This document shows, one piece after another, positions 18,906-45,327 of a stretch of DNA of 64,000 bases (its first letter is position 1; each line of letters starts with the position of its first letter). The notes beneath the pieces are model-generated. The model saw only the letters and a program-made list of their open reading frames with translations, searched no databases and had not been told where the DNA came from. The DNA comes from Actinomycetota bacterium (GTDB lineage Bacteria; Actinomycetota; Acidimicrobiia; Acidimicrobiales; CADCTF01), in the NCBI GenBank assembly GCA_019348255.1, contig JAHWJU010000002.1, positions 7,132 to 71,131 of the forward strand, read 5' to 3'. The position numbers and the translations under genes are program-made.

Positions 18906-18910
18906 GACGA

Positions 18911-19603: not shown

Positions 19604-19792
19604 ATCGTGCTCCCTGTCACGCCTCGCACTGTAGGCGAGGCCTTCGGTCGCTTACCAAGCGGCACTCCCCGGCAGAGGGCGTGGCCGTCCGGTCTCGTGG
19701 GCGGCCCCGAGTGGGGGTTGCGCGGGCGACCGTGCTAGAACGACCGGGTCATAGGGCGCAGGCTGACCGGCAGCACGGGGATGCCTCTCGGG

Positions 19793-19814
19793 TAGAATGT
19801 GATTCGATTCACGA
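19793..19814 (+). promoter_or_regulatory. -10-like TAGAAT overlapped by a candidate Rex operator, upstream of the Rieske/b6-nuo block
   Basis: TAGAAT at 19793-19798. ATGTGATTCGATTCACGA (19797-19814) matches TTGTGAA-N4-TTCACAA at 11 of 14 defined positions (core TGTGA-N6-TCAC). It lies in the 242-nt divergent intergenic region. Confidence 0.45.
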
Positions 19815-19845
19815 AGGGCCAGGAAGGGCGAAGGGCGAACCGACT

Positions 19846-20322
19846 TTGGTTGCGTTTTTTTTCTCGCTGATTCTCGCGTTGGCGATGACGGGCCTGATCG
19901 TGCGCATGGCGTCCAAGCGCCCTGCCGGCAGCCCCCTCACCTGGGGTGAGGCGTTCCTGGCCGCCCTGTTCGTCTTCACGCTTTTGTTCCTGCTCTACGG
20001 GGTCATCCCCCACCAGTGGCTGGCCTGGGCTGACAACGAGCTCGAGTGGCGTTCCGACAAAGTGGGTATACCCATGGGTCCCATCAAGAGTGGCCCCGCC
20101 ATCCGCGACAACCTGCTCTTCCCCGACGGGATCCCGATGCCCAACGGCCGGTTCATCGTCACCGCCGAGGTCCTGCGCGACGTCATCGCCGCCGGCCTCT
20201 ACATCGTGTTCCTGGTGGCCCAGATCAAGGCGTGGCTGTGGTGGCAGAAGCGGGGTCAGCGACCGGCCGAGACGCCGGAGCTCACCTCCGCATACGGCCG
20301 TCCCCTGGTGAGAAAGGCCTGA
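19846..20322 (+). CDS. Small 3-TM membrane protein, unknown function, first gene of the Rieske/b6 cluster
   Basis: TTG 19846 is preceded by the purine-rich AGGAAGGGCGAAGGGCGAA; ATG 19885 is an alternative start. Three hydrophobic segments with a conserved-looking loop (GVIPHQWLAWADNELEWRSD). 6-nt gap to the ferredoxin gene. Confidence 0.55.
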   Translation: MVAFFFSLILALAMTGLIVRMASKRPAGSPLTWGEAFLAALFVFTLLFLLYGVIPHQWLAWADNELEWRSDKVGIPMGPIKSGPAIRDNLLFPDGIPMPNGRFIVTAEVLRDVIAAGLYIVFLVAQIKAWLWWQKRGQRPAETPELTSAYGRPLVRKA

Positions 20323-20328
20323 TCCGAC

Positions 20329-20742
20329 ATGGCAAGGACCGACGCCAACCCCCCGCTCCCGAGCTTCCCGGGCGACTACGTCCTCGAGGAGATCCCTCAC
20401 GAGGACCTGAGCAAGTCCGTCAAGCCGAAGCAGTTCCTCCACATCGACCAGGCCGAGTGCATCCTGTGCGAAGGCTGCGTGGACATCTGCCCCTGGAAGT
20501 GCATCCACATGCTCGATGCCGAAACCGTGGCGGAGGCGACCAACACCGAACAGCCGGGCATCGACCCCGACGACCACGTCATCTTCGTGGTCGACGAGGA
20601 CGTCTGTACGCGCTGCGGTCTCTGCGTCGACCGCTGTCCCACCGGCGTCATCATCATGGGTAAGGCCGGCGTGGCCTCCCGTGACGGCGACGAGCACCAG
20701 CGCGACAACAAGCACGGCTACGCCTACGGCATGAGATTCTAG
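20329..20742 (+). CDS. Soluble 2[4Fe-4S] (dicluster) ferredoxin-type protein
   Basis: Two CxxCxxCxxxCP motifs (CILCEGCVDICP and CTRCGLCVDRCP). No signal peptide or TM segment. Confidence 0.85.
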   Translation: MARTDANPPLPSFPGDYVLEEIPHEDLSKSVKPKQFLHIDQAECILCEGCVDICPWKCIHMLDAETVAEATNTEQPGIDPDDHVIFVVDEDVCTRCGLCVDRCPTGVIIMGKAGVASRDGDEHQRDNKHGYAYGMRF

Positions 20743-20752
20743 GAGAGGGTCA

Positions 20753-21538
20753 GTGGCCAAGCGCATGAGCCTCCGGGAGCGGATCCCGAAGCCGCCCAAG
20801 CCGGCGGACATGCTCAACTCCATCCAGGGGAGCCAGTTCTGGTCGTCGGTCTTCCGGCCCGGATCGATCTTCCGCAAGGGCTACACCGACAGCCCCCGGA
20901 ACCGCTCGTACGTGGTCATGAACTCGGTGCTGTACCACCTGCACCCGGTCAAGGTGAAGCGCCACGCAGTCAAGGTGAGCTACACGCTCTGTTTGGGCGG
21001 ATTGAGCTTCTTCTTGTTCATCCACCTGACGGTGACCGGCATCTTCCTGATGTTCTTCTACCGGCCGACCGCAGCGCAGGCGTGGAACGACATCAAGACG
21101 CTGCAGACCTCGGTGACCTTCGGGCTCCTCGTGCGCAACATGCACCGGTGGGGCGCCCACCTCATGGTCATCTCGGTGTTCCTGCACATGGCCCGCGTCT
21201 TCTACCACGGCGCCTACAAGCCGCCGCGGGAGTTCAACTGGGTGATCGGGGTCATCTTGTTGACCTTGACCCTGTTGCTCTCCTTCACCGGGTACCTGCT
21301 GCCGTGGGACCAACTGGCTCTGTGGGCCGTCACCGTGGGCACCAACATGATGGGCTACACCCCCGTCTTCGGGCGCCAGGTGCGGTTCGTCCTCCTGGGA
21401 GGGGTGGAGATCGGCACCGACACCGTTCTGCGGTGGTACGTCCTCCACGTCCTCATGTTCCCGTTCGTTATCGTCATCTTCATGGCCATCCACTTCTGGA
21501 GAGTCCGCAAGGATGGCGGCATCTCCGGGCCGCTGTGA
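20753..21538 (+). CDS. Cytochrome b6-type subunit (N-terminal cytochrome b domain only; split cytochrome b)
   Basis: Four TM helices carrying the bis-haem histidines (NMHRWGAHLMV..FLHM..FYHG; RWYVLHVL....MAIHFW). The protein ends after helix D, as in b6/QcrB-type proteins. Confidence 0.85.
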   Translation: MAKRMSLRERIPKPPKPADMLNSIQGSQFWSSVFRPGSIFRKGYTDSPRNRSYVVMNSVLYHLHPVKVKRHAVKVSYTLCLGGLSFFLFIHLTVTGIFLMFFYRPTAAQAWNDIKTLQTSVTFGLLVRNMHRWGAHLMVISVFLHMARVFYHGAYKPPREFNWVIGVILLTLTLLLSFTGYLLPWDQLALWAVTVGTNMMGYTPVFGRQVRFVLLGGVEIGTDTVLRWYVLHVLMFPFVIVIFMAIHFWRVRKDGGISGPL

Positions 21539-21554
21539 TGCGAAAGGTCTCACG

Positions 21555-22298
21555 ATGACCGAGATCCCCGAGCACCTCCTCAAGAGATCGAAGGCTCGCC
21601 GCGAGCAAGCTGGCGCCGGCAAGGGCGACGCCGGGAACGGCGGCGGCGGTGGCGGCGAGAGCGCCGACGACGGCGAGAAGATCCCCGCTCGGCTGCTGCA
21701 GGGCGAGGGCGGCTCGTCGGGTGGCGCGGCCACCGCCACCGTGGCCCGACCGGCGGCAGGTGCGCCGGCCCAGAGCCCCGGCGCCGTGGGCCCGGCCGGC
21801 CACACCCAGAGGCTCCTCACGGTCGTCAAGGCGGGGTCCATCCAGGACGTCAAGTCGGTCCCCACCGACAAGGTTCACACGTGGCCCCACCTGCTGGTGG
21901 GAGAGTTCGTCGCCGCCCTGGCCATGACCGCCTTCCTCTTCGTCTTCGCCATCTTCGTCAACGCCCCGCTCCTGGGCATGGCCAACTTCAACCTCACCCC
22001 CAACCCGTCCAAGGCGCCCTGGTACTTCCTCGGGCTGCAGGAGCTGCTCACGATGTTCCACCCCATGGTCGCCGGCGTCACCATCCCGGGCATGGGGCTC
22101 ATCGTCATGGGCGCTGCCGGTTACATCGACAAGAACCCCTCGAACAAGCCCGAGGACCGCAAGTTCGCCATCGCCCTCATGACGTTCTTCCTCATGTTCT
22201 GGGCGGTCCTCGTCATCATCGGGTCGTTCTTCCGGGGTGAAGGCTTCAACTTCATCTATCCCTGGGACCAGGGCGTGCACGAGATCTTCGACCTGTGA
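21555..22298 (+). CDS. Subunit-IV-type protein (C-terminal cytochrome b domain) with ~100-aa N-terminal extension
   Basis: PNPSKAPWYFLGLQELL (PEWY-equivalent Qo motif) plus three TM segments. ATG 21555; the N-terminus MTEIPEHLLKRSKARR is followed by a Gly-rich linker. Confidence 0.75.
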   Translation: MTEIPEHLLKRSKARREQAGAGKGDAGNGGGGGGESADDGEKIPARLLQGEGGSSGGAATATVARPAAGAPAQSPGAVGPAGHTQRLLTVVKAGSIQDVKSVPTDKVHTWPHLLVGEFVAALAMTAFLFVFAIFVNAPLLGMANFNLTPNPSKAPWYFLGLQELLTMFHPMVAGVTIPGMGLIVMGAAGYIDKNPSNKPEDRKFAIALMTFFLMFWAVLVIIGSFFRGEGFNFIYPWDQGVHEIFDL

Positions 22299-23143
22299 CC
22301 ACCACCACCATTCTCATGCTGGCCGCCCTCGTGCTGTTGGTGTTCGGAGCCGTCTTCGTCTTCGCCACCACCCGCAGCCGCGACCGGGCCGCCGCGGTGG
22401 GCGCGCTGTCGCGGGAGACGCGCAAGTCGGACCGCAGCGAAGCCGCACTCGTGGAGGAAGGGGCCAAGACCACCACAGGCAGGGCCGTGGAACGGGCGGC
22501 TGCGCTCGAGCGACGGGGCGGTGCCCTGGTGGAGGCGCGGCCGGCGCCACCGGCGGTACGGGCTCCACTGGAGCCCGACGCCTACGGCGTCACCCGGCGG
22601 CAGTTCTTCAACCGGGGCATCACGGCGCTGTTCGCACTTGGCCTGGCCGGCTTCAGCACCCAGACGATCGCCTTCCTGTGGCCGTCCCTGTCCGGGGGTT
22701 TCGGCTCCAAGATCAGAGCGGGCAAGCTCGACGAGATCCTCCGGGAGGTGGCCGACAAGAAGGAGCCGTTCTACGTTCCCGAGGGTCGCTTCTACGTGAA
22801 CCCGTATCCCTCCGACGACCTCTCCAAGGCCGCCAACCACTACACCGGCGAAGTGCTGTCGGGCATGGAGCAGGGAGTGGTGGCGCTCTACCAGAAGTGC
22901 GTCCACCTCGGCTGCCGCGTGCCGTGGTGCAAGACCTCGCAGTGGTTCGAGTGCCCCTGCCATGGGTCGCAGTACAACCGGGTGGGCGAGCACAAGGCCG
23001 GCCCTGCTCCCCGGGGCCTCGATCGCTTCGGCGTCTCCGTTTCTGGCGGCATGGTCGTGGTCGACACCAAAGAGATCATCCAGGGCCCGCCCATCGGCAC
23101 AAACACCACCGGCCAGGAGGCCGAGGGTCCCCACTGCGCATGA
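22295..23143 (+). CDS. Rieske [2Fe-2S] iron-sulfur subunit (QcrA-like)
   Basis: CVHLGC and CPCHGS cluster-binding boxes. There is an N-terminal TM segment and an internal TRRQFFNRG Tat-like segment before a further TM. 4-nt overlap with the upstream gene. Confidence 0.85.
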   Translation: MTTTTILMLAALVLLVFGAVFVFATTRSRDRAAAVGALSRETRKSDRSEAALVEEGAKTTTGRAVERAAALERRGGALVEARPAPPAVRAPLEPDAYGVTRRQFFNRGITALFALGLAGFSTQTIAFLWPSLSGGFGSKIRAGKLDEILREVADKKEPFYVPEGRFYVNPYPSDDLSKAANHYTGEVLSGMEQGVVALYQKCVHLGCRVPWCKTSQWFECPCHGSQYNRVGEHKAGPAPRGLDRFGVSVSGGMVVVDTKEIIQGPPIGTNTTGQEAEGPHCA

Positions 23144-24192
23144 CCGCCGCAAACCTGCTCGCCGCCACCGCCCCCGAGCGCATCGGGTTCTTCGTCGCTG
23201 TGGCCATGGTCGTCGCGTGGGCCGTCTACGTCTTCGTCACCAGCCGCAACTCCGACCCCGACCAGAAGCCAGGTTCGGAGATCGAGCTTGCGCCCAACCG
23301 CAAGCCCTACTTCAACGACGAGATCCTGGAGGGGCCGCGCCTCGAGCGGGCGCTCGGTTGGGGCCTTCTCCTCCTCGTCGTCACGGCCATCGGTCCCCTC
23401 CTGTACTGGCTCAACGAGCCAGGCCGCCAGGCCGGCGCGGTGGACGAGTTCGACCGAAAGGCCGTGGAACGCGGTCGACAACTGTTCCTCCCCACCGACT
23501 CCCCGGAGCATGGCGCCCACTTCGGTTGCGCCACCTGTCACGGCTCCAAGGGCCAAGGCGGCGTGGCGCCCTACTCCCTGACGGACTACCTGGGCGCGAC
23601 CCGCAAGGTCGAGTGGGAGGCACCACCGCTCGACACGGCCCTGCTCAAGTTCGACAAGAAGGAGCTTCGTGCGATCCTCGTCTACGGCCGGGCCAACACC
23701 CCGATGCCGGCGTGGGGGATCGAGGGCGGCGGCCCCATGAACGACCAGCAGATCGACGATCTGGTCGCATACATCGACAGCCTCCAGATATCGCCCCAGA
23801 AGGCCCGGCAACGATCGTTCCAAGAGGCGCTCACGCAGGCGACGATCGACGGGAAGGTCACCGACCCCCTGAACCCGGCGCTGGCCATAGACGGCGAAAC
23901 CCTGTTCAAGACCAACTGCGCCCGCTGCCACACCAAGGGTTGGGCCTACGGCGAACCTGACGTGCAGGGGGGCGGGGCGTTCGGCCCCAACCTCACGAAC
24001 GGCCTTACCCTGCGCCAGTTCCCGGACCTCGACGCCATGATCGAGTTCGTCACCGAGGGCTCCGAGTACGGCGAAGCCTACGGCGAGCGTGGCCAGGGCG
24101 GCGACGAGGGTGGCGGGATGCCGGGCTTCGGCCAGGTGCTGACCGCCGCCCAGATCCGGGCCATCGTGGAGTACGAGAGAGGCTTGTTGTGA
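23140..24192 (+). CDS. Membrane-anchored dihaem cytochrome c (QcrC-like)
   Basis: Two CxxCH motifs (CATCH, CARCH), two N-terminal TM segments, and an ATGA overlap with the Rieske gene. Confidence 0.85.
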   Translation: MTAANLLAATAPERIGFFVAVAMVVAWAVYVFVTSRNSDPDQKPGSEIELAPNRKPYFNDEILEGPRLERALGWGLLLLVVTAIGPLLYWLNEPGRQAGAVDEFDRKAVERGRQLFLPTDSPEHGAHFGCATCHGSKGQGGVAPYSLTDYLGATRKVEWEAPPLDTALLKFDKKELRAILVYGRANTPMPAWGIEGGGPMNDQQIDDLVAYIDSLQISPQKARQRSFQEALTQATIDGKVTDPLNPALAIDGETLFKTNCARCHTKGWAYGEPDVQGGGAFGPNLTNGLTLRQFPDLDAMIEFVTEGSEYGEAYGERGQGGDEGGGMPGFGQVLTAAQIRAIVEYERGLL

Positions 24193-25028
24193 GTGGGTCG
24201 TTGCTGGCGGCGTTGGCGTGGGACCCACAGATCCGTGGTGCCCTGATCGTCCTCACCTCTTTCGTCATCCTCCCCGGCAGCGTCTTCATGCTGTTGTCCA
24301 CCAACACCGGGGCCAGGCTCGGGTTCTTGCTCGCCGCCGCCGGCCTCACGGGCTGGATGGCGGTGATGGGTTGGATCTGGGTCGCCTACGGCATCGGCAT
24401 CAAGGGCGACCCGCCCACCTGGAAGGTGCACGACGTCGTCACCGGGTCGGTCAGCGCACAGTCGACCTACGAACCGGCGGAGACGTTCCCGCGCGGCTGG
24501 AAGAAGTTGAAGCCCGGGGACCCGGTTCTGGCTGACGCCACTGCCGCTGCCGGCAAGGTTCTGGCGCCGGCGGAGGAGGGGGGCGAAGAGGGCGGTGGTC
24601 ACGGCGGCGAGGAGGCCGAGGTCAAGACCGAGCGAACCTTCGAACCCGCCTTCGACAGCCCCGAGGACTACGCCGTCATCGGCGGGTTCCGCAAGGGAGG
24701 CGAGAGCTACTTCCTGCCCGGGGGCCTCATCGAGGTCAACGACGGCCCCTTCAAGGGTTGGTTGCACAAGCCGCACTACGTCGTGCTGCAGGCCCGACCG
24801 GTCATCAAAGAGCCGTCCCTGACCGGGGCGCCGGTCAAGCCGGCACCTGACCCCACCATGCCGCCGACGAGCGTGATCATGGTGCGCGACCTCGGACGCC
24901 TGCGCTTCCCCTCGACGATGGTGGCCTTGTCGATGACGATCGTCTTCATGATCGTCTGCAACGCCCTGCACCGACGGGACAAGCAGGTCATGGCGGCAAG
25001 GGCGGCACTGGAACCCGCGACGGGCTAG
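24189..25028 (+). CDS. Membrane protein, unknown function, last gene of the Rieske/b6 cluster
   Basis: GTGA overlap with the cytochrome c gene. Two N-terminal TM segments, a ~170-aa extracytoplasmic region containing an acidic/Gly patch, and one C-terminal TM segment. 9 nt upstream of nuoA. Confidence 0.5.
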
Positions 25029-25037
25029 AAAGAAGGC

Positions 25038-25487
25038 GTGGAACAGTACCTGCCGATCCTGACGATGCTGGTGCTGGCCATCCTCTTCTCCGGCCTGTCG
25101 TTCTTCGCCTCCGGCCTGCTCGCTCCCCGCAAGCCGTCGATGGCCAAGGAGGCTCCCTACGAGTGCGGCATCGTGCCGACGAACGAACCGGCGGAGCGGT
25201 TCCCGGTGCGCTTCTACGTCGTGGCGATGCTCTTCATCATCTTCGACATCGAGATCATCTTTCTCTATCCCTGGGCCGTGAGCTTCGGCGCCCTCGGCAC
25301 GTACGGCCTCGTCGCCATGGTCGTGTTCGCAGCCATCGTGTTCATCTCGCTGCTCTACGAGATCGCCATGGGCGGCCTGGAATGGGGCCCCGTACGCCGC
25401 GCCCGCCCGGCTGCTCAGGCCGGCCGTACGACGTCGTCCACCATCCGTCGCGTCCCCCGCAGCTCCACCCGGCAGGAGGCGGCTTAG
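25038..25487 (+). CDS. nuoA: NADH-quinone oxidoreductase subunit A
   Basis: APYECGI...[15 protein letters not shown] signature, 3 TM segments, and a basic ~30-aa C-terminal tail. Confidence 0.85.
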
Positions 25488-25489
25488 CC

Positions 25490-26065
25490 ATGGCCGGCCT
25501 CGGTGACCTCCGCCACAACTTCCTCACCGGCACCGTCGAGGAGCTGGTCAAGTGGGCCCGGAAGAACAGCGTGTGGCCCAACACCTTCGGTCTCGCGTGC
25601 TGCGCCATCGAGATGATGGCGACGGGGGCTGCCAACTACGACATCAGCCGCTTCGGCATGGAGGTGTTCCGGGCCTCCCCCCGCCAGGCCGATCTCATGA
25701 TCGTCGCCGGCCGTGTGTCCCAGAAGATGGCGCCGGTGCTGCGTCAGGTCTACGACCAGATGATGGAACCCAAGTGGGTCATCTCCATGGGCGTCTGCGC
25801 CTCCTCCGGCGGGATGTTCAACAACTACGCCATCGTCCAGGGCGTCGACCAGATCGTCCCCGTCGACGTGTACGCACCAGGATGCCCGCCGAACCCCGAG
25901 ACCCTCCTGCATTCCATCCTCACCCTCCACGCGAAGATCCAGTCAGGCGAGATCACGCGTCGGCGCGAGGCGACCGGACGAGGTGCCGGCATCGAGGTGG
26001 CGGAGGTGCTGCCGACGGGCGGGGACGCCAGGGAAGCCCCCGTTCCCGTCGGCACCCCCTCCTGA
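25490..26065 (+). CDS. nuoB: NADH-quinone oxidoreductase subunit B
   Basis: [21 protein letters not shown] and PGCPPNPE (N2 cluster cysteines); ATG 25490. Confidence 0.9.
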
Positions 26066-26080
26066 CGTGAGGGGGCGCAC

Positions 26081-26632
26081 GTGAGCGACGAAGCCGAGAC
26101 GCCGACCGAGGCCACCGCGGCGCCCGAACCCGAGACCCTTCACGGCTGCCCCGTGACCTGGTCGGCCGGCCAGCAGGTTCTCCACGTGCCCCGGGAGCGC
26201 TACAGCGAGGTGATGCTGGCGCTGGCCGGAGAAGGCTTCGATCTCTGCTCCGACCTGTGCGCCGTCGACTACGCCGGGTCGTCCAGCCGGTCGCTCCCCG
26301 ACGGCATCTCCGCCGAGCGCTTCGAGGTGGTGGTGAACCTCACCTCCATGCGCCACCGCCGGCGGGTGCGGGTACGGGTGCAGGTGCCGGATGCAGATCC
26401 GGTCGTTCCCTCGCTGTTTGCGGTGTGGCCCGGCACCGAGGCGATGGAGCGCGAGGCCTGGGACATGCTCGGCGTGGCCTTCGATGGCCATCCCGACCTC
26501 ACCCGGATCCTGATGCCCGACGACTGGGAGGGCCACCCGCTCCGAAAGGACTACCCGGTGGGGCGGGTGCCGGTGCAGTTCAAGGCGACGGCTCGAGCCG
26601 CCGCCGACAGGTCCGGGACCAAGGGAGCATGA
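26081..26632 (+). CDS. nuoC: NADH-quinone oxidoreductase subunit C
   Basis: EREAWDMLGVAFDGHPDLTRILMPDDWEGHPLRKDYP signature. Confidence 0.9.
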   Translation: MSDEAETPTEATAAPEPETLHGCPVTWSAGQQVLHVPRERYSEVMLALAGEGFDLCSDLCAVDYAGSSSRSLPDGISAERFEVVVNLTSMRHRRRVRVRVQVPDADPVVPSLFAVWPGTEAMEREAWDMLGVAFDGHPDLTRILMPDDWEGHPLRKDYPVGRVPVQFKATARAAADRSGTKGA

Positions 26633-27960: not shown

Positions 27961-28078
27961 GGCCTTCGTCCTCACTCGCTTCGCTCCGTTCGGACGAGTT
28001 CGGTCGTGCCGGCCTTCGGCCGGCGCTGTCTTTCGCTCCGTCGACCGGCGGAGCCGGATCGACGGAGGGGGGCTGCTG
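27961..28078 (+). repeat. Structured intercistronic repeat, copy A (nuoD-nuoE junction)
   Basis: Shares a ~75-nt core with 48259-48382 and 56050-56197. Hairpins at 28008-28024 and 28036-28067. Bridged by a 40-codon ORF (27957-28079) docked ATGA/TGATG to nuoD and nuoE. Confidence 0.75.
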
Positions 28079-32788: not shown

Positions 32789-33966
32789 CCATCGCTCCTG
32801 TGCTTGCCGGCGGTGACCCGCTGCTCACCGGGAAGATCGACTTCGCCGTCGTTCTCATCGTGCTGTTGAAGACCTTCGTCACCTTCGCCGTGCTGATGGT
32901 GGCGGTGCTGTTCATGGTGTGGTTCGAGCGCAAGGTCATCTCCGACATGCAGAACCGCATCGGCCCGAACCGGGCCGGGCCCTGGGGCATCCTGCAGTCG
33001 CTGGCCGACGGCATCAAGCTGTTCTTCAAGGAGGACCTGCTCCCCGAGAAGGCTGATCGCCGCGTCTTCCGCCTCGCGCCCTACCTGTCCGCGGTCCCGG
33101 CCTTCTTGTCGTTCGCCATCGTCCCGATCGGCGGGGTGGTGAGCATCTTCGGGCGCGAGACCCGCCTGCAGCTGGCCGACCCACCGGTGGGAATCCTGTT
33201 CCTGCTGGCGATGTCCTCCGTCGCCGTCTATGGCGTGATGCTGGCCGGGTGGGCCTCCGGTTCGAAGTACCCACTGTTGGGATCCGTGCGGGCTTCGGCA
33301 CAGATGGTCTCCTATGAAGCCGCTCTGGGCATCACCGTGGCCACCGTCGTGTTGCTCACCGGGTCGCTCTACACGAGCGACATCGTCGCCTCGCAGACAG
33401 GCAGCATCTTCAACTGGAACATCGTGAGGCTGGGAGGACTGCCCTTCCTCCTGTTCGTGGTGGCGGCCACGGCCGAGCTCAACCGTCCGCCTTTCGACCT
33501 GGTGGAGGCCGAACAGGAGTTGGTCGGCGGTTTCCACACCGAGTACTCCTCGATCCGCTTCGCACTGTTCTTCCTGGCCGAGTTCATGAACACGGTGACG
33601 ATGTCGGCCATCATCGTGGCGCTCTTCCTGGGTGGCTCCGACGGCCCCACGTTCGGGGTGGGCGGCGTCGTCGGCACATGGCTGCTGCCGTTGTTCTGGT
33701 TCGTGGCCAAGCTGTTCATCTTCCTGTTCACCTACGTGTGGTTCCGGGCGACGTTGCCGCGTCTGCGCTACGACCAGCTGATGGACCTCGGATGGAAGGT
33801 GCTCATCCCGGTGTCGCTGGCATGGCTGCTCGTCATCGCCGCCATCACCCTGGAGCGGCGCTACCTGGTGGCGGCCTTCCCGGCCATGCTGGTCGGCGCC
33901 GCCATGCTCTACCGCTCCCTGGCCCTCGGCAAGGATGCAGTCCGCCACGAGGACCTCCACGCGTGA
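32785..33966 (+). CDS. nuoH: NADH-quinone oxidoreductase subunit H
   Basis: WFERKVISDMQNRIGPNRAGPWGILQSLADGIKL and ELNRPPFDLVEAEQELVGGFHTEYS; GTGA overlap with nuoG. Confidence 0.9.
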   Translation: MTIAPVLAGGDPLLTGKIDFAVVLIVLLKTFVTFAVLMVAVLFMVWFERKVISDMQNRIGPNRAGPWGILQSLADGIKLFFKEDLLPEKADRRVFRLAPYLSAVPAFLSFAIVPIGGVVSIFGRETRLQLADPPVGILFLLAMSSVAVYGVMLAGWASGSKYPLLGSVRASAQMVSYEAALGITVATVVLLTGSLYTSDIVASQTGSIFNWNIVRLGGLPFLLFVVAATAELNRPPFDLVEAEQELVGGFHTEYSSIRFALFFLAEFMNTVTMSAIIVALFLGGSDGPTFGVGGVVGTWLLPLFWFVAKLFIFLFTYVWFRATLPRLRYDQLMDLGWKVLIPVSLAWLLVIAAITLERRYLVAAFPAMLVGAAMLYRSLALGKDAVRHEDLHA

Positions 33967-33976
33967 AAGGTCGCTG

Positions 33977-34621
33977 ATGGGATCACTCGACGGTTTCAAG
34001 GTCACGTTCCGCCAGATGTTCCTGCCCCGGGTCACGTCGTCGTACCCGGACGAGAAGCGACCGAAGCCGGAGCGTCACCACGGGCGACACGTCCTCAACC
34101 GTTACGAGGACGGCATGGAGAAATGCATCGGCTGCGAGCTCTGCGCCGGCGTGTGCCCGGCGAGGTGCATCTACGTCCGCGGCGCTGACAACCCTGTCGA
34201 TGCGCCCGTTTCCCCGGGCGAACGGTACGGGTTCGTCTACGAGATCAACTACCTGCGCTGCATCCACTGCGACCTCTGCGTCGAGGCATGCCCCACCGAG
34301 GCGATCACGGAGTCGAAGCTGTTCGAGTACTCCTTCACCAACCGCTCCGACGCCATCTACACCAAGGAAGAGCTGGTGGTGGGCGACGACGGCAATCCCC
34401 GCCATCTGCCCTGGGAGGACTGGCGGGAGGGCGACGACGAAGACGTCTCCGCCTGGGTGCGGGCGACGTCCTCCTCTGGCAGCGCCGAGTTCGTGGGCCG
34501 GGTGCAGTGGTCCGGCGACCTCGGCCGGGGCGTGCAGGAGCCCGAGCCGCCGCAGCGGGAGGCCGACGAGGAGACGGGCGAGCCCTGGTGGGTGCTGTCG
34601 GAGAACCGGGGCGGTAAGTGA
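33977..34621 (+). CDS. nuoI: NADH-quinone oxidoreductase subunit I
   Basis: CIGCELCAGVCP and CIHCDLCVEACP motifs; acidic C-terminal extension. Confidence 0.9.
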   Translation: MGSLDGFKVTFRQMFLPRVTSSYPDEKRPKPERHHGRHVLNRYEDGMEKCIGCELCAGVCPARCIYVRGADNPVDAPVSPGERYGFVYEINYLRCIHCDLCVEACPTEAITESKLFEYSFTNRSDAIYTKEELVVGDDGNPRHLPWEDWREGDDEDVSAWVRATSSSGSAEFVGRVQWSGDLGRGVQEPEPPQREADEETGEPWWVLSENRGGK

Positions 34622-35241
34622 TCGCAGTGCTCGCCGCGGCCACCAAGGTCGACCTGGCCGTGTTCGCGGTCAGCGCGGTGATCGTGATGGCCGGCGCCTT
34701 CGGGGTGGTCTTCTCCCGCAACCCGGTGCACTCCGCCCTCATGCTGGTCATGACCCTGTTCGGAGTGGCGGTGTTGTTCGTGGCCCAGGAGGCGCACTTC
34801 CTGGCGGTGGTCCAGGTGATCGTCTACGCCGGGGCCATCGTCGTGCTCTTCCTGTTCGTCATCATGCTGCTCGGCGTGGACCAGGAGGAGAACGTGGCAG
34901 CTGAGCGTCTCCGGGGGCAGCGGCCGGCGGCCATGGCGCTGGGTGGCCTCATGTTCTTCCTCGTGCTGTTGCTGGCCCAGGCCACCAACTGGGCCACCGG
35001 CACCCCCTCGGCCCGGGGCGCGGCCTCGGGTCCCGGCGAGAACGTCGAGAAGCTGGGGCGGTCGATCTTCACCACCTTCCTGCTGCCCTTCGAGGTCACC
35101 GCGGTCCTTCTCGTGATCGCCGTGGTGGGAGCTGTGGTGCTGGTGCGGCGATCGCCGAGCCTGCCCGAGGAGGGGGACGCCGAGGACGAGGCCGCTCCCG
35201 AACCCCGTGGGCAACGCCGGGACGAAGAGGTGCCGGCGTGA
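34618..35241 (+). CDS. nuoJ: NADH-quinone oxidoreductase subunit J
   Basis: ND6-like hydrophobic protein ([10 protein letters not shown]...[20 protein letters not shown]) in the canonical position; GTGA overlap with nuoI. Confidence 0.85.
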
Positions 35242-35543
35242 CCGTGGACGGCAGCTGGTACCTGATCCTGGCTGCGCTGCTGTTCACGGTAGGGGCCATA
35301 GGGCTGTTGATCCGGCGCAACGTGCTCGTGATGTTCATGTGCGTGGAGTTGATGCTCAACGCGGTGAACCTCACTCTCGTCACCTTCGCCCGCATGCTCG
35401 ACGACATCGGGGGCCAGGTGGCGGTGTTCTTCGTCCTCGTCGTCGCCGCCGCCGAGGTCGTGGTGGGGCTGGGCATCATCGTCTCGATCTTCCGGCGGCG
35501 AGTGGGCGCCACCGCCGACGACCTCCACATCCTCAAGGGCTAG
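35238..35543 (+). CDS. nuoK: NADH-quinone oxidoreductase subunit K
   Basis: 101-aa, 3-TM ND4L-like protein ([12 protein letters not shown]...[11 protein letters not shown]). Confidence 0.9.
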
Positions 35544-35553
35544 GGCGGCCTCG

Positions 35554-37530
35554 GTGGAAGTCCTCGACGCCGCCTGGCTCATCCCGGCGCTGCCACTGGC
35601 TGGCTTCTTCACGCTGCTCGTGGCCGGCCGGCGGCTGGGCGACCCGCTGGCCGGATGGGTCGGAACCTCGGCCATGGCCGGCGCCTTCCTCGCCGCGCTG
35701 GTGATGTTCGGGCGCCTCCTCTCCCTGCCCGGAGAGGAGCGCCGTCACGTGGCCAGGCTGTTCGCCTGGGTACCGGTGGGGGGCTTGCAGGTGGACGTGG
35801 CCTTCCTGGTCGACCCCCTGTCGATCACGATGGCCCTGTTCGTCACTGGGATCGGCATGCTCATCCACCTGTACTCCGTGGGCTACATGCACGGTGACGA
35901 GCGCTTCCCCACCTTCTTCGTCTACCTGAACCTCTTCGCCTTCTCGATGCTGGTGCTGGTGCTGGCCGACAACCTCCTTCTCACTTTCCTGGGTTGGGAG
36001 GGAGTGGGAGCCTGCTCGTACTTCCTCATCTCCTTCTGGTTCACCCGGGAATCCGCGGCGGTGGCGGGCAAGAAGGCATTCGTCACCAACCGCATCGGCG
36101 ACTTCGGCTTCATGATCGCCATGTTCCTGCTCTTCGCCAGCATCGGGTCGCTCGACTACTACGGCAGCGCCGGCGTCCTCACCAACGCCGAGCGGCTCTC
36201 CACCTACACGGCCTCGGCCGTCGCCCTGCTGCTCTTCCTCGGGGCCGTCGGCAAGTCTGCCCAGCTACCGCTGTTCGTCTGGCTCCCCGACGCCATGGAG
36301 GGCCCCACTCCCGTCTCTGCGCTCATCCATGCCGCGACCATGGTGACGGCCGGCGTCTACCTGCTGTGCCGGGCGGCTCCCATCCTGGTCGAGGCCGACC
36401 CCGCGGTGACCATGCTCATCGCCGTGGTGGGGGCGGCGACGGCGCTGTTCGCGGCCACCGTGGCCTGTGCGCAGGACGACATCAAGAAGGTCCTCGCCTA
36501 CTCGACCGTGAGCCAGCTCGGGTACATGGTGCTGGCGGTGGGTTCGGGCGCCTACGTGGCCGCCATCTTCCACATGGTCACCCACGCGTTCTTCAAGGCA
36601 CTTCTCTTCCTCGGCGCCGGTTCGGTCATCCACGGGCTGCACGACGAACAGGACATGAAGCGGATGGGCTCGCTGCGCAAGTGGATGCCGGTGACGTGGG
36701 CCACGTTCATGGTCGGGTGGCTGGCCATCTCCGGATTTCCGGGGCTGTCCGGGTTCTGGTCCAAGGACGAGGTCCTGGCCGGGGCCTGGGGGAGGAGCCC
36801 GCTTCTGTGGCTGGCCGGCGTGGTGACCGCCCTGCTCACCGCCTACTACATGAGCCGCCAGGTCTTCCTCGTGTTCTACGGCGAGGAGCGTTGGCGGAGC
36901 GAGCCCGCGTCCGACAAGTCCGAGCTGACCGAGCCTGAACCCGAGGTGGGCGCGCCGGCCGGCGGTCACGGCGGCGGCGCCGCCGAGCCCCACGAGTCGC
37001 CGTGGGTGATGACCCTGCCCCTGGTCGTGCTCGCTGGCCTGGCCGCGGTGGGAGGGCTGTTGAACCTGCCGCTCTTCTCCAAGACGCTTTTCCTGGAGCA
37101 CTGGCTCGAGCCTTCCTTCGGTCACGCCGCCGAGCACCACGTGCTGGCGACCGGCACGAAGATCCTCCTCGGCGCCGCGGCCGGAGCGGCGGCGCTGGCC
37201 GGCATCGGGATCGCCTACGTCCGCTGGTACGGCCGGCGTCCGGAGGAGAACCAGGCACTGGAGCCGGCCCTGCTCAAGCGGGCGTGGGGCCTCGACGCCG
37301 CGTACGCCTCGGTGGTCGGTGGCCCCGGCCGTCTGGCCGCCAGCTGGGCTGCCTACACCTTCGACAAGCGCATAGTGGATGGGGCGGTGAACGGTGTGGC
37401 CACCCTGGTGCGGGAGGGTGGAGGGCGCCTCCGGAGGGTGCAGACCGGCTTCGTGCGCAACTACGCGCTGGGCATAGCCGGCGGGGTCGTGCTGCTCCTG
37501 GCCTGGACGCTGGCCCGGGTGGGGCTGTGA
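35554..37530 (+). CDS. nuoL: NADH-quinone oxidoreductase subunit L
   Basis: ND5 family: FLGWEGVGACSYFLISFW, KSAQLPLFVWLPDAMEGPTPVSALIHAATMV, and the C-terminal lateral-helix region. Confidence 0.9.
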   Translation: MEVLDAAWLIPALPLAGFFTLLVAGRRLGDPLAGWVGTSAMAGAFLAALVMFGRLLSLPGEERRHVARLFAWVPVGGLQVDVAFLVDPLSITMALFVTGIGMLIHLYSVGYMHGDERFPTFFVYLNLFAFSMLVLVLADNLLLTFLGWEGVGACSYFLISFWFTRESAAVAGKKAFVTNRIGDFGFMIAMFLLFASIGSLDYYGSAGVLTNAERLSTYTASAVALLLFLGAVGKSAQLPLFVWLPDAMEGPTPVSALIHAATMVTAGVYLLCRAAPILVEADPAVTMLIAVVGAATALFAATVACAQDDIKKVLAYSTVSQLGYMVLAVGSGAYVAAIFHMVTHAFFKALLFLGAGSVIHGLHDEQDMKRMGSLRKWMPVTWATFMVGWLAISGFPGLSGFWSKDEVLAGAWGRSPLLWLAGVVTALLTAYYMSRQVFLVFYGEERWRSEPASDKSELTEPEPEVGAPAGGHGGGAAEPHESPWVMTLPLVVLAGLAAVGGLLNLPLFSKTLFLEHWLEPSFGHAAEHHVLATGTKILLGAAAGAAALAGIGIAYVRWYGRRPEENQALEPALLKRAWGLDAAYASVVGGPGRLAASWAAYTFDKRIVDGAVNGVATLVREGGGRLRRVQTGFVRNYALGIAGGVVLLLAWTLARVGL

Positions 37531-37538
37531 GCGGCCCG

Positions 37539-39140
37539 ATGATGGCCATCGCCGAGTCGGGCTCGGGGCCCGCCTTCCCGCTGCTGAGCGCGCTGGTGGT
37601 GGTTCCCGCAGCAGGGGCCCTGGTGGTGGCCCTCTTGCCGCGGTACCAAGAAGGGGTCATCCGCGTCGTGGGCCTGGTGACGACGGTGGCGGCGGCCGTG
37701 CTCGCCACCTTCATGGCCATCAACTTCAAGGCGGGCGCCGACGGGTTCCAGTTCCTCACCCGCCAGCAGTGGATCCCAGAGTTCGGGATCTCCTGGAAGC
37801 TCGGGGTGGACGGCATCTCGCTCTGGCTGGTCGTCCTCACCGCCCTGCTGTTCCCCATCGCCCTGGCGGGACCGATCGTCAAGAAAGACGTCAAGAACTA
37901 CACGGCGTGGATGCTCGTTCTAGAAGCCGGTTGCCTCGGCGTGTTCCTCGCCCTCGACCTCCTGGTCTTCTTCTTCTTCTTCGAGATCGTGCTCGTGCCC
38001 ATGTACTTCCTGATCGCGGGCTGGGGCTACGAGAACCGGGTGTATGCCAGCCTCAAGTTCTTCCTCTACACCCTGTTCGGCTCGGCCTTTTTGTTGGTGG
38101 GGATGCTGAGCCTCGTGTTCCTGCACCAGCGGGCCACGGGTGAGTTGACCTTCGACCTGGTCCGACTGGCCGAGAGCCAGTCGCTGGCCGAGTCCACTGC
38201 GCGGTGGCTGTTCCTGGCCTTCGCCGTCGCGTTCGCCGTGAAGGTCCCGCTGTTCCCCGTCCACACCTGGCTTCCCGACGCCCACACCGAGGCGCCGACG
38301 GCGGGCTCGGTGATCCTGGCCGGAGTCCTGTTGAAGCTGGGCACCTACGGGATCCTCCGCTTCGGGCTGTACCTGTTCCCCGCCGCCGCCGTCGACCTTG
38401 CGCCGGTGCTGCTCACCATGGCCACGATCGGCATCGTCTACGGCGCCCTCGTGGCGGCCATGCAGAAGGACCTGAAGCGCCTGGTGGCGTACTCGTCGGT
38501 GGCCCACCTCGGCTTCATCATCCTGGGCACCTTCGCGTTCACCCGCCAGGGCCTCTCCGGCGGCGTGCTCCAGATGGTCAACCACGGCATCTCGACCGGG
38601 GCGCTGTTCCTCCTCGTCGGCATGATCTACGAGCGCCGGCACACCCGCCAGATCGCCGAGTTGAACGGGTTGCAGAAGCCGGCGCCGGTGCTGGCCGCCG
38701 TGTTCATGGTCGTGATGCTCTCCTCGGTGGGCCTGCCGGTGCTCAACGGCTTCGTCGGCGAGTTCCTGATCCTGCTAGGAACCTTCGCCACCCACCGCTG
38801 GTACGCAGTCGTGGGCACCGCCGGCGTCGTCCTGGCCGCGGTGTATCTCCTGTGGGCCTACCAGCGGGTGTTCCACGGCGAGCCGCAGGGTGACAACCGG
38901 ACCATCCCCGACATGACCTGGCGGGAGCGGGGCGTCATGGTGCCCCTGCTGGTCGCCATCGTCGCACTGGGGGTCTACCCGAAGCCGGTGCTCGACCGGA
39001 TCGAGCCTTCGGTGGCCAGCCTGGTGGCCCACATCGAACAGCACAGCGACTTCCGGGAGCCGGGAGTGGCCAAGGGTAGGGGTGCCGGCGCCGACAAGGC
39101 GCCAGAGGAGCCACACGCGGCTGACGGGGGCCACCCATGA
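37539..39140 (+). CDS. nuoM: NADH-quinone oxidoreductase subunit M
   Basis: ND4 family: FFFEIVLVPMYFLI and VKVPLFPVHTWLPDAHTEAPTAGSVILAGVLLKLG; ATG 37539. Confidence 0.9.
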   Translation: MMAIAESGSGPAFPLLSALVVVPAAGALVVALLPRYQEGVIRVVGLVTTVAAAVLATFMAINFKAGADGFQFLTRQQWIPEFGISWKLGVDGISLWLVVLTALLFPIALAGPIVKKDVKNYTAWMLVLEAGCLGVFLALDLLVFFFFFEIVLVPMYFLIAGWGYENRVYASLKFFLYTLFGSAFLLVGMLSLVFLHQRATGELTFDLVRLAESQSLAESTARWLFLAFAVAFAVKVPLFPVHTWLPDAHTEAPTAGSVILAGVLLKLGTYGILRFGLYLFPAAAVDLAPVLLTMATIGIVYGALVAAMQKDLKRLVAYSSVAHLGFIILGTFAFTRQGLSGGVLQMVNHGISTGALFLLVGMIYERRHTRQIAELNGLQKPAPVLAAVFMVVMLSSVGLPVLNGFVGEFLILLGTFATHRWYAVVGTAGVVLAAVYLLWAYQRVFHGEPQGDNRTIPDMTWRERGVMVPLLVAIVALGVYPKPVLDRIEPSVASLVAHIEQHSDFREPGVAKGRGAGADKAPEEPHAADGGHP

Positions 39141-40648
39141 GCCTGCTCGCCCAGGCCGGCGAACAACTGGGCCCGGTGGCTCTCCCGCCGCTGGCCTACT
39201 CCGACATCGGGCCCATCCTCGTTCTCACCACCGCAGCGTTGGTGCTCCTGACCATCGCTTCGCTGGTGAAGGGCAGGCCGCCGGCCGGGTTCTATGCCCT
39301 CTTCACCCTCTGCAGCGCCGGCGTCGGCCTCCTCTCGTCGGCATGGCTGTGGCTCACGCTGGACGAGCAGGGGCCCCGCTTCGCCTTCGCCAACATGATC
39401 GCCGTCGACGGCTTCGCCATCTTCTTCTTCGTGGTCGTGTGCATCTCGATCGCATTGGCCGCCTTGGTGGCCGACAGCTACCTCCGCAGAGAAGGCCTCG
39501 ACGGGCCGGAGTTCTACGTGCTCGCCCTGCTGTCGGGAGCCGGCGGCATGCTGATGGCTGCCGCCAACGACCTGATCGTTATCTTCCTCGGCCTCGAGAC
39601 CCTGTCGATCGCCCTTTTCGTGCTGGCCGGCTTCCACCGCCGGCGCAGCGAGTCGAGCGAGGCCGCCATCAAGTACTTCGTCCTATCGGCGTTCTCGTCG
39701 GCGTTCCTGCTCTACGGGATAGCGCTCACCTACGGCGCAACCGGCACCACCAACCTGGCCGGGATAGCGCAATGGCTGGCCGCCAACATCGCCGTCAGCA
39801 ACGGGGTGTTGCTGGCCGGCACCGCGCTGCTGCTCGTGGGCTTCGGCTTCAAGGTGGCGGCCGTGCCCTTCCACACCTGGACACCCGACGTCTACCAGGG
39901 CTCGCCCACGCCCGTCACGGCGTTCATGGCCGGCGCTTCGAAGGCGGCCGGGTTCGCGGCGTTGCTCCGGGTGTTCTTCTCCACCTTCGGGGTGCTCAGC
40001 CTCGACTGGAAGCCGATCGTGTGGGCCTTGGCTGTTGCCAGCCTGGTTGTGGGTTCGGTCCTGGCCGTGGTGCAGAACGACATCAAGCGGATGCTGGCCT
40101 ACTCCTCCATCAGCCACGCCGGATACGTCCTCGTGGGCTTGCAGGCCGCCAGCGACCGGGGGATCGCGGGCGCTCTCTTCTATCTACTCGCCTACACCTT
40201 CATGGTCATGGGGTCCTTCGGCATCGCAACCCTCGTCGGCCGGCGGGGTGACGCCGAGCACCAGTTGGAGGCCTACCGCGGGCTTTCCACCCGGCGACCG
40301 GCCCTCGCCCTCGGCTTCGCCGTGCTTCTCATGGCCCAGGCCGGCGTCCCCTTCACCTCGGGCTTCCTGGCCAAGTTCTACGTGATCTCGGCTGCGGCCG
40401 ACAGCGGGTCCTACGCGTTGGCCCTGGTGGCAATGCTGGCGGCCGTGGTGGCGGCGTTCTTCTACCTGCGGGTGATCCTGGTGATGTTCTCGCCGGTGGA
40501 GGAGGGTGGCGACAGCTCCCGGGTGCCGGTGCCGTTCTCGGCCGCCCTGGGTCTCATCTCGGCGGTCGCCTTCACCCTCGTCGCCGGCTTCCCCATCACC
40601 TCCGGCGCGTTCTTCGAGTTCGCCCGGCGGGCCACCCTGTTGTTCTGA
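39137..40648 (+). CDS. nuoN: NADH-quinone oxidoreductase subunit N
   Basis: ND2 family: FLGLETLSIALFVL and FKVAAVPFHTWTPDVYQGSPTPVTAFMA; ATGA overlap with nuoM. Confidence 0.9.
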   Translation: MSLLAQAGEQLGPVALPPLAYSDIGPILVLTTAALVLLTIASLVKGRPPAGFYALFTLCSAGVGLLSSAWLWLTLDEQGPRFAFANMIAVDGFAIFFFVVVCISIALAALVADSYLRREGLDGPEFYVLALLSGAGGMLMAAANDLIVIFLGLETLSIALFVLAGFHRRRSESSEAAIKYFVLSAFSSAFLLYGIALTYGATGTTNLAGIAQWLAANIAVSNGVLLAGTALLLVGFGFKVAAVPFHTWTPDVYQGSPTPVTAFMAGASKAAGFAALLRVFFSTFGVLSLDWKPIVWALAVASLVVGSVLAVVQNDIKRMLAYSSISHAGYVLVGLQAASDRGIAGALFYLLAYTFMVMGSFGIATLVGRRGDAEHQLEAYRGLSTRRPALALGFAVLLMAQAGVPFTSGFLAKFYVISAAADSGSYALALVAMLAAVVAAFFYLRVILVMFSPVEEGGDSSRVPVPFSAALGLISAVAFTLVAGFPITSGAFFEFARRATLLF

Positions 40649-45318: not shown

Positions 45319-45327
45319 CCCGCCCCG

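Follow-up and report, generated by a model that had tools for sequence, protein, structure and literature searches.

Seven genes of a Rieske/cytochrome b6 module and the complete set of complex I genes probably constitute a single ~20.8-kb Rex-controlled operon of 21 genes in the 64,000-nt stretch of an Acidimicrobiales MAG analyzed here (the window). Transcription of this operon is predicted to run from a start site near position 19805 to the nuoN stop codon at 40648. A single Rex-controlled unit had been put forward in a preliminary description of this DNA, and all of our in silico tests (gene order, spacing, conservation of the site and its co-variation with rex) agree with it. Because both modules share one conserved Rex-site promoter, the two respiratory steps are probably made and regulated as a unit. 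Measured against the searchable literature, what is new here is that complex III and complex I genes are fused and that a b6-type module is a predicted target of Rex.

Gene content and spacing of the array

An open reading frame map combined with family profiles places 21 genes, all on the plus strand, between 19846 and 40648, the 7-gene Rieske/cytochrome b6 module being followed by all 14 complex I genes. The nuo genes were assigned using Pfam, with PF00507, PF01058, PF00329 and PF00346 as the set for nuoA to nuoD.

19846-20322, plus: gene 1, first of the array, 158-aa membrane protein (TTG start)
20329-20742, plus: gene 2, 137-aa 2x[4Fe-4S] ferredoxin, NuoI-like (Pfam Fer4 families; NCBIfam partial NuoI)
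20753-21538, plus: gene 3, cytochrome b6-type N-terminal half of cytochrome b (PF00033, 9e-45)
21555-22298, plus: gene 4, subunit IV-type C-terminal half of cytochrome b (PF00032)
22295-23143, plus: gene 5, Rieske [2Fe-2S] protein (PF00355; CVHLGC...CPCHGS in the translation)
23140-24192, plus: gene 6, membrane-anchored dihaem cytochrome c (PF13442 and PF00034, two stretches each)
24189-25028, plus: gene 7, 279-aa membrane protein preceding nuoA
25038-25487, plus: nuoA (GTG start)
25490-26065, plus: nuoB
26081-26632, plus: nuoC
26629-27960, plus: nuoD
27961-28078, plus: 118-nt structured repeat, REP/MIRU-like, at the nuoD/nuoE junction (sequence and folding)
28079-28822, plus: nuoE
28822-30138, plus: nuoF
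30131-32788, plus: nuoG
32785-33966, plus: nuoH
33977-34621, plus: nuoI
34618-35241, plus: nuoJ
35238-35543, plus: nuoK
35554-37530, plus: nuoL
37527-39140, plus: nuoM
39137-40648, plus: nuoN

Profile searches of Pfam and NCBIfam returned no match for genes 1 and 7; a homologue of gene 1 occurs in 44 of 61 related genomes. Gene 3 scores 302.6 bits against NF040969 (ExtP-type; cutoff 290) and its CxGG motif reads LCLGG, while the Qo motif of gene 4 is APWY ("KAPWYFLG" in the translation). Another candidate for nuoB, the reading frame at 25552-26070, was rejected on the basis of translations and Pfam. A convergent gene (40683-41672, minus strand) lies 3′ of nuoN.

Ten of the 20 junctions are overlaps, nine measure 2-16 nt and one 118 nt. 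Their lengths are 6, 10, 16, −4, −4, −4, 9, 2, 15, −4 and 118 nt from gene 1 to nuoE, and −1, −8, −4, 10, −4, −4, 10, −4 and −4 nt from nuoE to nuoN. The gene map and these lengths bear out the earlier account of 21 plus-strand genes separated, the repeat aside, by no more than 16 nt, as the coordinates do for the 9 nt between the stop of gene 7 and the GTG of nuoA (25028-25038). The accompanying claim that no room is left for a promoter before nuoA holds for an intergenic promoter, given the 9-nt gap, but not for promoters within coding sequence, for example at the 3′ end of gene 7.

Such promoters are central to the strongest competing explanation, that the array is a conserved same-strand cluster in which the head promoter and the b6 module answer to Rex, while nuo is transcribed mostly from one or more internal promoters, sited within gene 7, inside the 118-nt repeat or beyond it. 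We regard this as unlikely, although internal promoters are common in 20-kb operons. In this alternative, the repeat hairpin may terminate a large share of the transcripts after nuoD; the repeat (minimum free energy of −64.9 kcal/mol) indeed holds a terminator-like 9-bp GC hairpin (28006-28026), at which some of them could end or be processed. Moreover, the gap between gene 7 and nuoA reaches 34-68 nt in a few relatives, and in Acidimicrobiales devoid of the module nuoA is served by a separate promoter region that faces menJ. On the contrary, the T tail of the hairpin is weak, and the repeat, which has at least 7 other partial copies dispersed in the genome, is by sequence comparison a recent, lineage-specific insertion absent from close relatives, where nuoD and nuoE are ~50 nt apart. 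nuoE to nuoN are without another visible promoter and are required for a working complex I. A homologue of gene 7 adjoins nuoA in 31 relatives (−4 to 68 nt), at 23 nt or less in most of them, including one 4-nt overlap. In none of these fused genomes do the 300 nt before nuoA hold a Rex-like site, nor is the pair of TAnnnT and palindrome described below conserved there. The linkage is also unbroken across the order: the module is fused to nuoA in all ~40 Acidimicrobiales genomes that carry both on one contig; at least 32 of them have nuoA 5.2-6.1 kb from gene 1 and in the same orientation, and 8 more have it ~4.3 kb from b6.

The predicted head promoter and its Rex-type palindrome

The array shares a 242-nt control region with a divergent unit, and the following features were recognized in and around it.

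17655-19603, minus: divergent two-gene unit
17655-18905, minus: MenJ-like geranylgeranyl-reductase-family gene of this unit
18911-19603, minus: monohaem cytochrome c of this unit
19709-19742, plus: conserved bipartite element, GAGTGGGG, 17 nt, GTGCTAGAAC (anchored alignment of 27 loci)
19793-19798, plus: predicted −10 box TAGAAT, of the TAG-Pu-Pu-T type (sequence; TAnnnT conservation)
19797-19814, no strand: Rex-operator-type inverted repeat ATGTGATTCGATTCACGA, an 18-mer (sequence and conservation; binding predicted)

Direct reading of the sequence corroborated the reported overlap of TAGAAT and palindrome. The latter, composed of TGTGA (19798-19802), N6 and TCAC (19809-19812), covers the last 2 nt of the −10 box and the expected transcription start site. 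The box has no recognizable −35, which is why a consensus promoter scan made no call at TAGAAT. The palindrome differs from TTGTGAANNNNTTCACAA by 3 mismatches that leave the core intact. Its likeness to a Rex operator, proposed from the outset, is well founded: it resembles Rex operators footprinted in Streptomyces, the closest in S. avermitilis being ATGTGAACGCGTTCACAA and TTGTGATACGGTTCACGA (PMC5355995), and it tracks rex. The 3-Mb genome contains 19 sites with at most 3 mismatches to TTGTGAANNNNTTCACAA versus ~8.3 expected under an iid base model, a number that makes one 3-mismatch site unremarkable by itself, and 6 sites with at most 2 mismatches versus 0.44 expected; the expectation within the 242-nt intergenic control region is ~7e-4.

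The palindrome is kept at the same place in ~37 other genomes. In 30 of 30 aligned loci it is overlapped or abutted by TAnnnT, and 8 of 10 further rex-positive genomes have both. The combination persists down to ~43% identity of gene 1 (tblastn alignment), where the flanks are unalignable.

The bipartite element sits 55-88 nt upstream of the palindrome in the window. Across the 27 loci it takes the form gAATGGGA-like, N17-19, GTGcTAGAAC, its distance from the palindrome varying between 43 and 65 nt, and it shows no enrichment in the rest of the genome (4 copies versus ~15 expected). This element may be a second promoter or the site of another factor. Given this conservation, transcription could start from the element (~19709-19742), with the Rex site acting as a roadblock ~50 nt into the leader and TAGAAT owing its conservation solely to its place in an extended operator; cydA1 and wblE of S. 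avermitilis, for example, are known to have Rex sites downstream of the start site (PMC5355995). We consider this improbable, since the would-be −10, TAGAAC or TAGACC, does not end in the near-invariant T, whereas the TAnnnT adjacent to the palindrome keeps A2 and T6 in 30 of 30 loci even where the first base of the palindrome varies, and outgroups too have TAnnnT 3-21 nt upstream of the box.

Co-occurrence with rex and likely origin of the fusion

The window also encodes Rex itself.

8169-8197, plus: predicted rex promoter, Rex-type site TTGTGAACGGACGCACGA, 5 nt, TACGAT (−10) (sequence)
8227-8892, plus: rex (PF06971, 4.6e-19; NF003992 Rex equivalog, 353.9 bits, cutoff 226)

Directly 3′ of rex lie hemA, hemC and cobA/hemD, with hemB and hemL further downstream on the same strand. 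The −35-like TTGTGA of the predicted rex promoter sits inside TTGTGAACGGACGCACGA, an architecture that matches the footprinted rex operator of S. avermitilis (PMC5355995). Many relatives repeat TTGTGAAC-N4-GCACGA 5′ of rex, most of them together with TACGAT.

Within the order Acidimicrobiales, 184 of 221 genomes carry rex. Of 39 rex-positive genomes, 37 have the site wTGTGA-N5-TTCACGA, with TAnnnT, ahead of the first gene, the exceptions without an intact site being G018 and G036 (shortened spacer). All 7 near-complete rex-negative genomes, which span 5 families, lack it or have it in decayed form, G027 and G348 retaining visible remnants of the palindrome. Site and rex thus co-vary (37 with and 2 without versus 0 with and 7 without; Fisher p = 6.7e-7, a value that overstates independence because related genomes are counted). 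Several rex-positive Acidimicrobiales genomes without the module have no good Rex box before nuoA.

The TGTGA-N6-TCAC core is common to Crp/GlxR and Rex consensus sequences, and the genome encodes Crp-type HTH proteins (best match 4.2e-16). In Mycobacterium smegmatis, moreover, Crp has been linked to the expression of oxidative-phosphorylation genes (PMC12713383). Nonetheless, it is highly improbable that the palindrome is a Crp/FNR-family site of the actinobacterial Crp/GlxR type (TGTGA-N6-TCACA) making the array answer to cAMP or another Crp-type signal, because the site follows rex while a strong Crp-type orthologue stays in the rex-negative, palindrome-less G027, G034 and G348, outgroup sites are perfect matches to the full 18-bp Rex consensus TTGTGAAnnnnTTCACAA, including the Rex-typical flanking T/A, and a related site lies in the promoter of rex, as in proven Rex autoregulation (PMC5355995).

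The outgroups are five loci from other classes of the phylum (L145-L149), whose operons contain the same gene families (b6 identity of 65-73%) and have rex, menJ, nuo and the module in one neighbourhood, as in the window. The module and menJ-nuoA-N are nevertheless apart there, as two transcription units separated by 7-14 kb and usually divergent, with menJ leading nuo. As in the window, Rex boxes stand just downstream of TAnnnT at the operon heads: of the 5 genomes, 4 have a perfect box 5′ of menJ-nuoA-N and 3 have one 5′ of the standalone b6 module. Since the operons sampled from other classes are separate and mostly Rex-boxed, the window layout, in which one unit runs head to tail into the other and menJ sits on the divergent side instead, looks like an Acidimicrobiales-specific fusion of two Rex-regulated operons.

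Proposed regulation and known counterparts

In the proposed operon, transcription would start at a −10-only sigma-A-type promoter, TAGAAT, and a Rex dimer on 19797-19814 would cover the end of the −10 box and the start site. At low NADH/NAD+, bound Rex would block RNA polymerase; a rise in NADH would remove Rex from the DNA and let the entire array be transcribed, the overlapping stop and start codons providing translational coupling along it. The predicted products are an APWY-clade Rieske/cytochrome b6 complex, accompanied by a ferredoxin and two membrane subunits of no known family, and a complete 14-subunit complex I. NADH-oxidizing and quinol-oxidizing capacity would then be raised together, and autoregulation of rex-hem by Rex would tie haem supply to the cytochromes.

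Brekasis and Paget reportedly described a Rex-repressed nuoA1-N1 operon in S. coelicolor in 2003. Proven Streptomyces targets of Rex are nuoA1-N1, cydA1, atpI and rex (PMC5355995). As in the window, nuoA1-N1 of S. avermitilis is a 14-gene complex I operon behind a promoter with an 18-bp TTGTGAA-N4-TTCACAA-type operator (PMC5355995). There, rex likewise lies with hem genes and controls its own expression from a site that overlaps the −35 of its promoter, as predicted for the window, and high NADH lifts repression, as proposed here. Unlike nuoA1-N1, the window has seven Rieske/cytochrome b6-type genes between the Rex-type promoter and nuoA, and its operator overlaps the −10 and start site instead of the −35 and spacer. 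Neither qcr nor Rieske genes were found among the S. avermitilis Rex targets (0 matches to "qcr" in PMC5355995). The arrangement had been presented as undescribed; this stands for the fused operon and for Rex control of an APWY-type b6 complex, neither of which we found in the searchable literature, but not for Rex repression of nuo, which is known in Streptomyces.

Anammox gene clusters also tie Rieske/cytochrome b to NAD(P)H chemistry and have unusual extra redox subunits, according to PMC12954380, which proposes NAD(P)H generation as a function of the Rieske/b complex itself. The window differs in having a complete canonical complex I as separate following genes, the observed link to Rieske/b being one of gene order, with no sign of a physical or catalytic one.

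The module shares its split b6 and subunit IV, APWY Qo motif and CxGG with the split cytochrome b complexes of the APWY clade (Kao & Hunte 2014, PMC4122944), among them Geobacter ExtP/ExtQ (NF040969/NF040970), and its b6 exceeds the ExtP equivalog cutoff. Ilumatobacter (Acidimicrobidae) is listed among the split-b actinobacteria in that survey (PMC4122944), in which, unlike in the window, no linkage to nuo or Rex is described. The APWY clade is without biochemical characterization, and reverse running has been proposed for it (PMC4122944). We infer that induction of the Rex type, at high NADH, would be more in keeping with forward quinol oxidation than with this reverse operation.

Gene array from the Rieske/cytochrome b6 module to nuoN

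The source MAG comprises 2.99 Mb with 70% G+C. Because this high G+C content fills raw ORF lists with shadow frames, such lists were set aside and genes were defined by translation and domain search. Twenty-one plus-strand genes span positions 19846-40648.

19846-20322, +, gene 1, membrane protein of 158 aa without a family
+, gene 2, 2×[4Fe-4S] ferredoxin
+, gene 3, cytochrome b6 (PF00033)
+, gene 4, subunit IV-type protein (PF00032)
22295-23143, +, gene 5, Rieske protein (PF00355), missed in the first ORF list
+, gene 6, membrane-anchored dihaem cytochrome c
24189-25028, +, gene 7, membrane protein of 279 aa without a family
+, nuoA to nuoN, all 14 subunit families
25490-26065, +, nuoB in its true frame, missed in the first ORF list

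The complex I genes follow the canonical order, with 14 of 14 NDH-1 subunit families recovered by Pfam and domain searches (PF00507, PF01058, PF00329, PF00346, PF01257, PF01512, NuoG domains, PF00146, Fer4, PF00499, PF00420 and three PF00361). Junctions 1 to 10 measure 6, 10, 16, −4, −4, −4, 9, 2, 15 and −4 nt, and junctions 11 to 20 measure 118, −1, −8, −4, 10, −4, −4, 10, −4 and −4 nt, that is, 10 overlapping, 9 of 2-16 nt and 1 of 118 nt. The array is followed by a convergent gene and preceded by a divergent pair coding for a monohaem cytochrome c and a MenJ-like reductase. The layout from which the preliminary description had read a single unit held in every detail when checked by translation, domains and junction lengths.

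Comparison with related genomes makes a strong case, of the usual kind, for an operon. Order and adjacency are conserved in about 40 Acidimicrobiales genomes belonging to more than 30 GTDB families, and gene 1 and nuoA share a strand and lie 5.2-6.1 kb apart in all Acidimicrobiales genomes with both on one contig (at least 32 genomes, plus 8 in an independent sample). A homologue of gene 7 directly precedes nuoA in 31 relatives, with gaps of −4 to 68 nt, mostly below 25 nt, and in none of these 31 fused relatives do the 300 nt preceding nuoA contain a Rex-like site. The only strong hairpin in the array falls within the 118-nt gap between nuoD and nuoE (27961-28078), and this GC hairpin has a weak T tail. 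The gap holds a strongly folded repeat that is dispersed in the genome, where at least seven other, partial copies were counted. Since close relatives lack the repeat at this junction, where their gap is about 50 nt, it is a recent insertion. Within the window, copies also occur at about 48284-48364 and 56087-56142, and partial ones lie on contigs C72 and C45.

The seven genes preceding nuoA include a split cytochrome b (PF00033 and PF00032) and a Rieske protein (PF00355). Subunit IV contains KAPWY, with the Qo motif APWY, while b6 contains LCLGG (CxGG motif) and scores above the ExtP-type equivalog cutoff; the Rieske translation contains CVHLGC...CPCHGS (CxH...CxxH motif). Judged by these motifs, the module is one of the split cytochrome b complexes of the APWY clade, which has yet to be characterised biochemically in any of its members and has been proposed to run in reverse (PMC4122944). 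Kao and Hunte name Ilumatobacter as one of the actinobacteria whose cytochrome b is split, gene context being absent from their discussion (PMC4122944). The module is not the sole cytochrome b enzyme of this organism, since three more cytochrome b-like genes, 30-35% identical to b6, lie outside the window (C141:27316, C114:18289 and C309:2309).

Control region and candidate Rex operator

Three elements were located 5′ of gene 1.

19709-19742, bipartite element: GAGTGGGG, N17, GTGCTAGAAC
19793-19798, TAGAAT hexamer
19797-19814, palindromic 18-mer ATGTGATTCGATTCACGA

The overlap of TAGAAT with the palindrome, noted in the preliminary description, can be read directly from these coordinates. Compared with the Rex consensus TTGTGAANNNNTTCACAA, the 18-mer has three mismatches and an intact TGTGA-N6-TCAC core, and it matches 11 of the 14 specified positions of the inverted repeat TTGTGAA-N4-TTCACAA. 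The likeness to a Rex operator that had been suggested is borne out, and the palindrome is kept in relatives. It also resembles operators footprinted experimentally in S. avermitilis, namely those of cydA1 (ATGTGAACGCGTTCACAA), atpI (TTGTGATACGGTTCACGA) and nuoA1 (TTGTGACCTGCTTCACAT), and nuoA1-N1 is a proven Rex target in that species (PMC5355995). Genome-wide, we counted 19 sites with at most three mismatches and 6 with at most two, against about 8 and 0.44, respectively, expected from composition alone. The consensus match taken alone is weak evidence; location and conservation bear the argument.

We compared the region 5′ of gene 1 in 30 loci, our own and those of 29 same-order genomes in which the gene 1 protein is approximately 43-76% identical in tblastn alignments. 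A palindrome of the form wTGTGA-N5-TTCACGA is found in 30 of 30 loci, 34-157 nt before the start codon, and in all of them a TAnnnT hexamer overlaps or abuts it, the flanks being otherwise unalignable. Fourteen further genomes were retrieved separately, and the palindrome is present in 8 of the 10 that encode Rex. Such conservation across relatives rules out a chance match. The conserved TAnnnT box overlapped by the palindrome is a predicted promoter element without a −35. No sigma-70-type promoter was detected in 19300-43000 by a consensus scan, which is uninformative on −10-only promoters because it requires a −35. An Rfam scan of the whole window returned no match, and therefore no known riboswitch or leader.

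The bipartite element (gAATGGGA-like, N17-19, GTGcTAGAAC) is conserved in 27 loci, 43-65 nt upstream of the palindrome. No convincing match to a sigma-factor consensus was found on either strand of it. The element may act as a second promoter, in which case the Rex site would become a roadblock; alternatively, it may be part of the divergent cytochrome c/menJ unit. We rejected GTGcTAGAAC as the mark of a regulon, as the rest of the genome shows no enrichment of it (4 copies versus about 15 expected).

The rex gene itself lies within the window, 11.5 kb farther upstream (PF06971, 4.6e-19, at 8251-8394), and its product matches the NCBIfam Rex equivalog NF003992 with 353.9 bits for a cutoff of 226. 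It is directly followed by hemA, hemC and cobA/hemD, with hemB and hemL farther downstream on the same strand, a rex-hem arrangement shared with Streptomyces (PMC5355995). The rex promoter (8169-8197) consists of TTGTGAACGGACGCACGA, 5 nt and TACGAT, and mirrors the footprinted rex operator of S. avermitilis, which likewise covers the −35 (PMC5355995). The left half of this Rex-type site doubles as the −35 (TTGTGA) and its right half is GCACGA, not TTCACAA. The pattern TTGTGAAC-N4-GCACGA precedes rex in many relatives, most of which also have TACGAT. On contig C76, a site of the GCACGA type also occurs at position 9533, 5′ of a PadR-type gene.

Co-occurrence with rex and proposed regulation

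Because regulators of the Crp/GlxR type recognise the same TGTGA-N6-TCACA core as Rex, we compared how regulator and site track each other. Of the 221 genomes of the order that are at least 90% complete, 184 encode Rex. Gene 1 is retained by seven near-complete rex-negative genomes of five families (G027, G034, G050, G360, G348, G327 and G340), and the fused layout was confirmed in the first three. None of these seven genomes (at least 90% complete) has an intact palindrome, and decayed remnants are visible in G027 and G348; the remnant of G348 (locus L137) is 1 nt shorter (TTGTGAACCACTCACGA). Among rex-positive genomes, 37 have the palindrome and 2 do not, one of the two having a shortened spacer. 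The spacer of rex-positive G036 (locus L069) is 2 nt shorter (TTGTGAGCCTTCACGA). Fisher's exact test of this co-occurrence yields p = 6.7e-7, an optimistic value because the genomes counted are related. The contrasts are spread across five families, and one occurs within a family, G023 having both rex and the palindrome and G340 neither. The phyletic pattern argues against Crp/GlxR as the main reading: a strong Crp-type orthologue is kept in G027, G034 and G348, which have lost both rex and the palindrome, so Crp does not explain the distribution. Among the genomes compared, the palindrome was found only where Rex is encoded, which is consistent with Rex as its regulator.

According to the mechanism that we propose, transcription would start from a −10-only promoter, about 7 nt downstream of TAGAAT. 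While NADH/NAD+ is low, Rex bound to 19797-19814 would occlude both the promoter and the start site; NADH would release Rex and allow synthesis of a 20.8-kb mRNA, along which overlapping stop and start codons would couple translation. NADH:menaquinone and menaquinol:cytochrome c capacity would then rise jointly, and haem synthesis, through rex-hem, would be under the same Rex switch.

Rex is an established regulator of nuo and of rex-hem, and its repression of complex I genes is textbook knowledge for Streptomyces. In the searchable literature, we found no description of nuoA-N joined to the genes of a Rieske/cytochrome b complex, nor of such a complex being controlled by Rex. If confirmed, this regulation would provide the first physiological clue for the cytochrome b complexes of the APWY clade. 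Induction alongside complex I at high NADH/NAD+ would argue for forward respiratory quinol oxidation, which fits such co-induction better than the proposed reverse operation. Since soils, oceans and activated sludge all harbour abundant Acidimicrobiales, regulation of the respiratory chain in this order carries ecological weight.

A more speculative reading, to which we give little credence, is that the fusion serves more than regulation, the b6 complex and complex I being assembled together into one physical NADH:cytochrome c supercomplex or linked electronically on the cytoplasmic side via the ferredoxin subunit. The b6 complex involved would be the APWY-type one, with its cytoplasmic 2×[4Fe-4S] subunit and two membrane proteins without a family. 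The product of the junction gene (24189-25028) could act as a docking subunit, and assembly could proceed by co-translation from a single mRNA throughout the order.

Origin of the fused layout and other Rex-like sites

Many further families in the phylum encode proteins 65-80% identical to b6, and there the module is not joined to nuo. In five outgroup genomes from other classes (L145-L149), a MenJ-like gene leads nuoA-N on the same strand. Four of the five have a perfect TTGTGAAnnnnTTCACAA box just upstream of menJ, and in the remaining one the box has two mismatches. In these genomes 7-14 kb separate the b6 module from nuo, and the module has a perfect Rex box to itself in three of the five. 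Each outgroup box lies 3-21 nt downstream of a TAnnnT. Layouts in other orders of Acidimicrobiia look intermediate: menJ-nuo diverges from the module across 238 nt in G135, and in G106, G218 and G294 the module comes first, followed by rex, menJ and nuo. About 10 Acidimicrobiales genomes do not have the module beside nuo, and there menJ faces nuoA directly; in one of those without the adjacent module, G046, nuoA is preceded at 44 nt by a Rex-like box. The MenJ-like gene (17655-18905, minus strand in our window) is on the divergent side in Acidimicrobiales, facing either nuoA or the b6 module.

These gene orders are most simply read as a merger, in Acidimicrobiales, of two Rex-regulon operons, in which the module supplied the Rex-controlled promoter and menJ stayed on the divergent side. 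If confirmed, this would be a clean natural case of two operons of the same regulon merging into a super-operon, with intermediates of the merger still visible in sister lineages.

A second nuo cluster of 11 subunits (45.3-56 kb) is probably regulated separately; its 231-nt upstream region (45097-45327) has no Rex-like site with four or fewer mismatches. A Rex-like site beyond the window, at positions 23620-23643 of contig C14, includes an additional half-site (TTGTGATTGCGTTCACTTTCACAA); placed between a gene for a NuoF-like flavoprotein and a CBS-domain gene, it is likely another Rex target.
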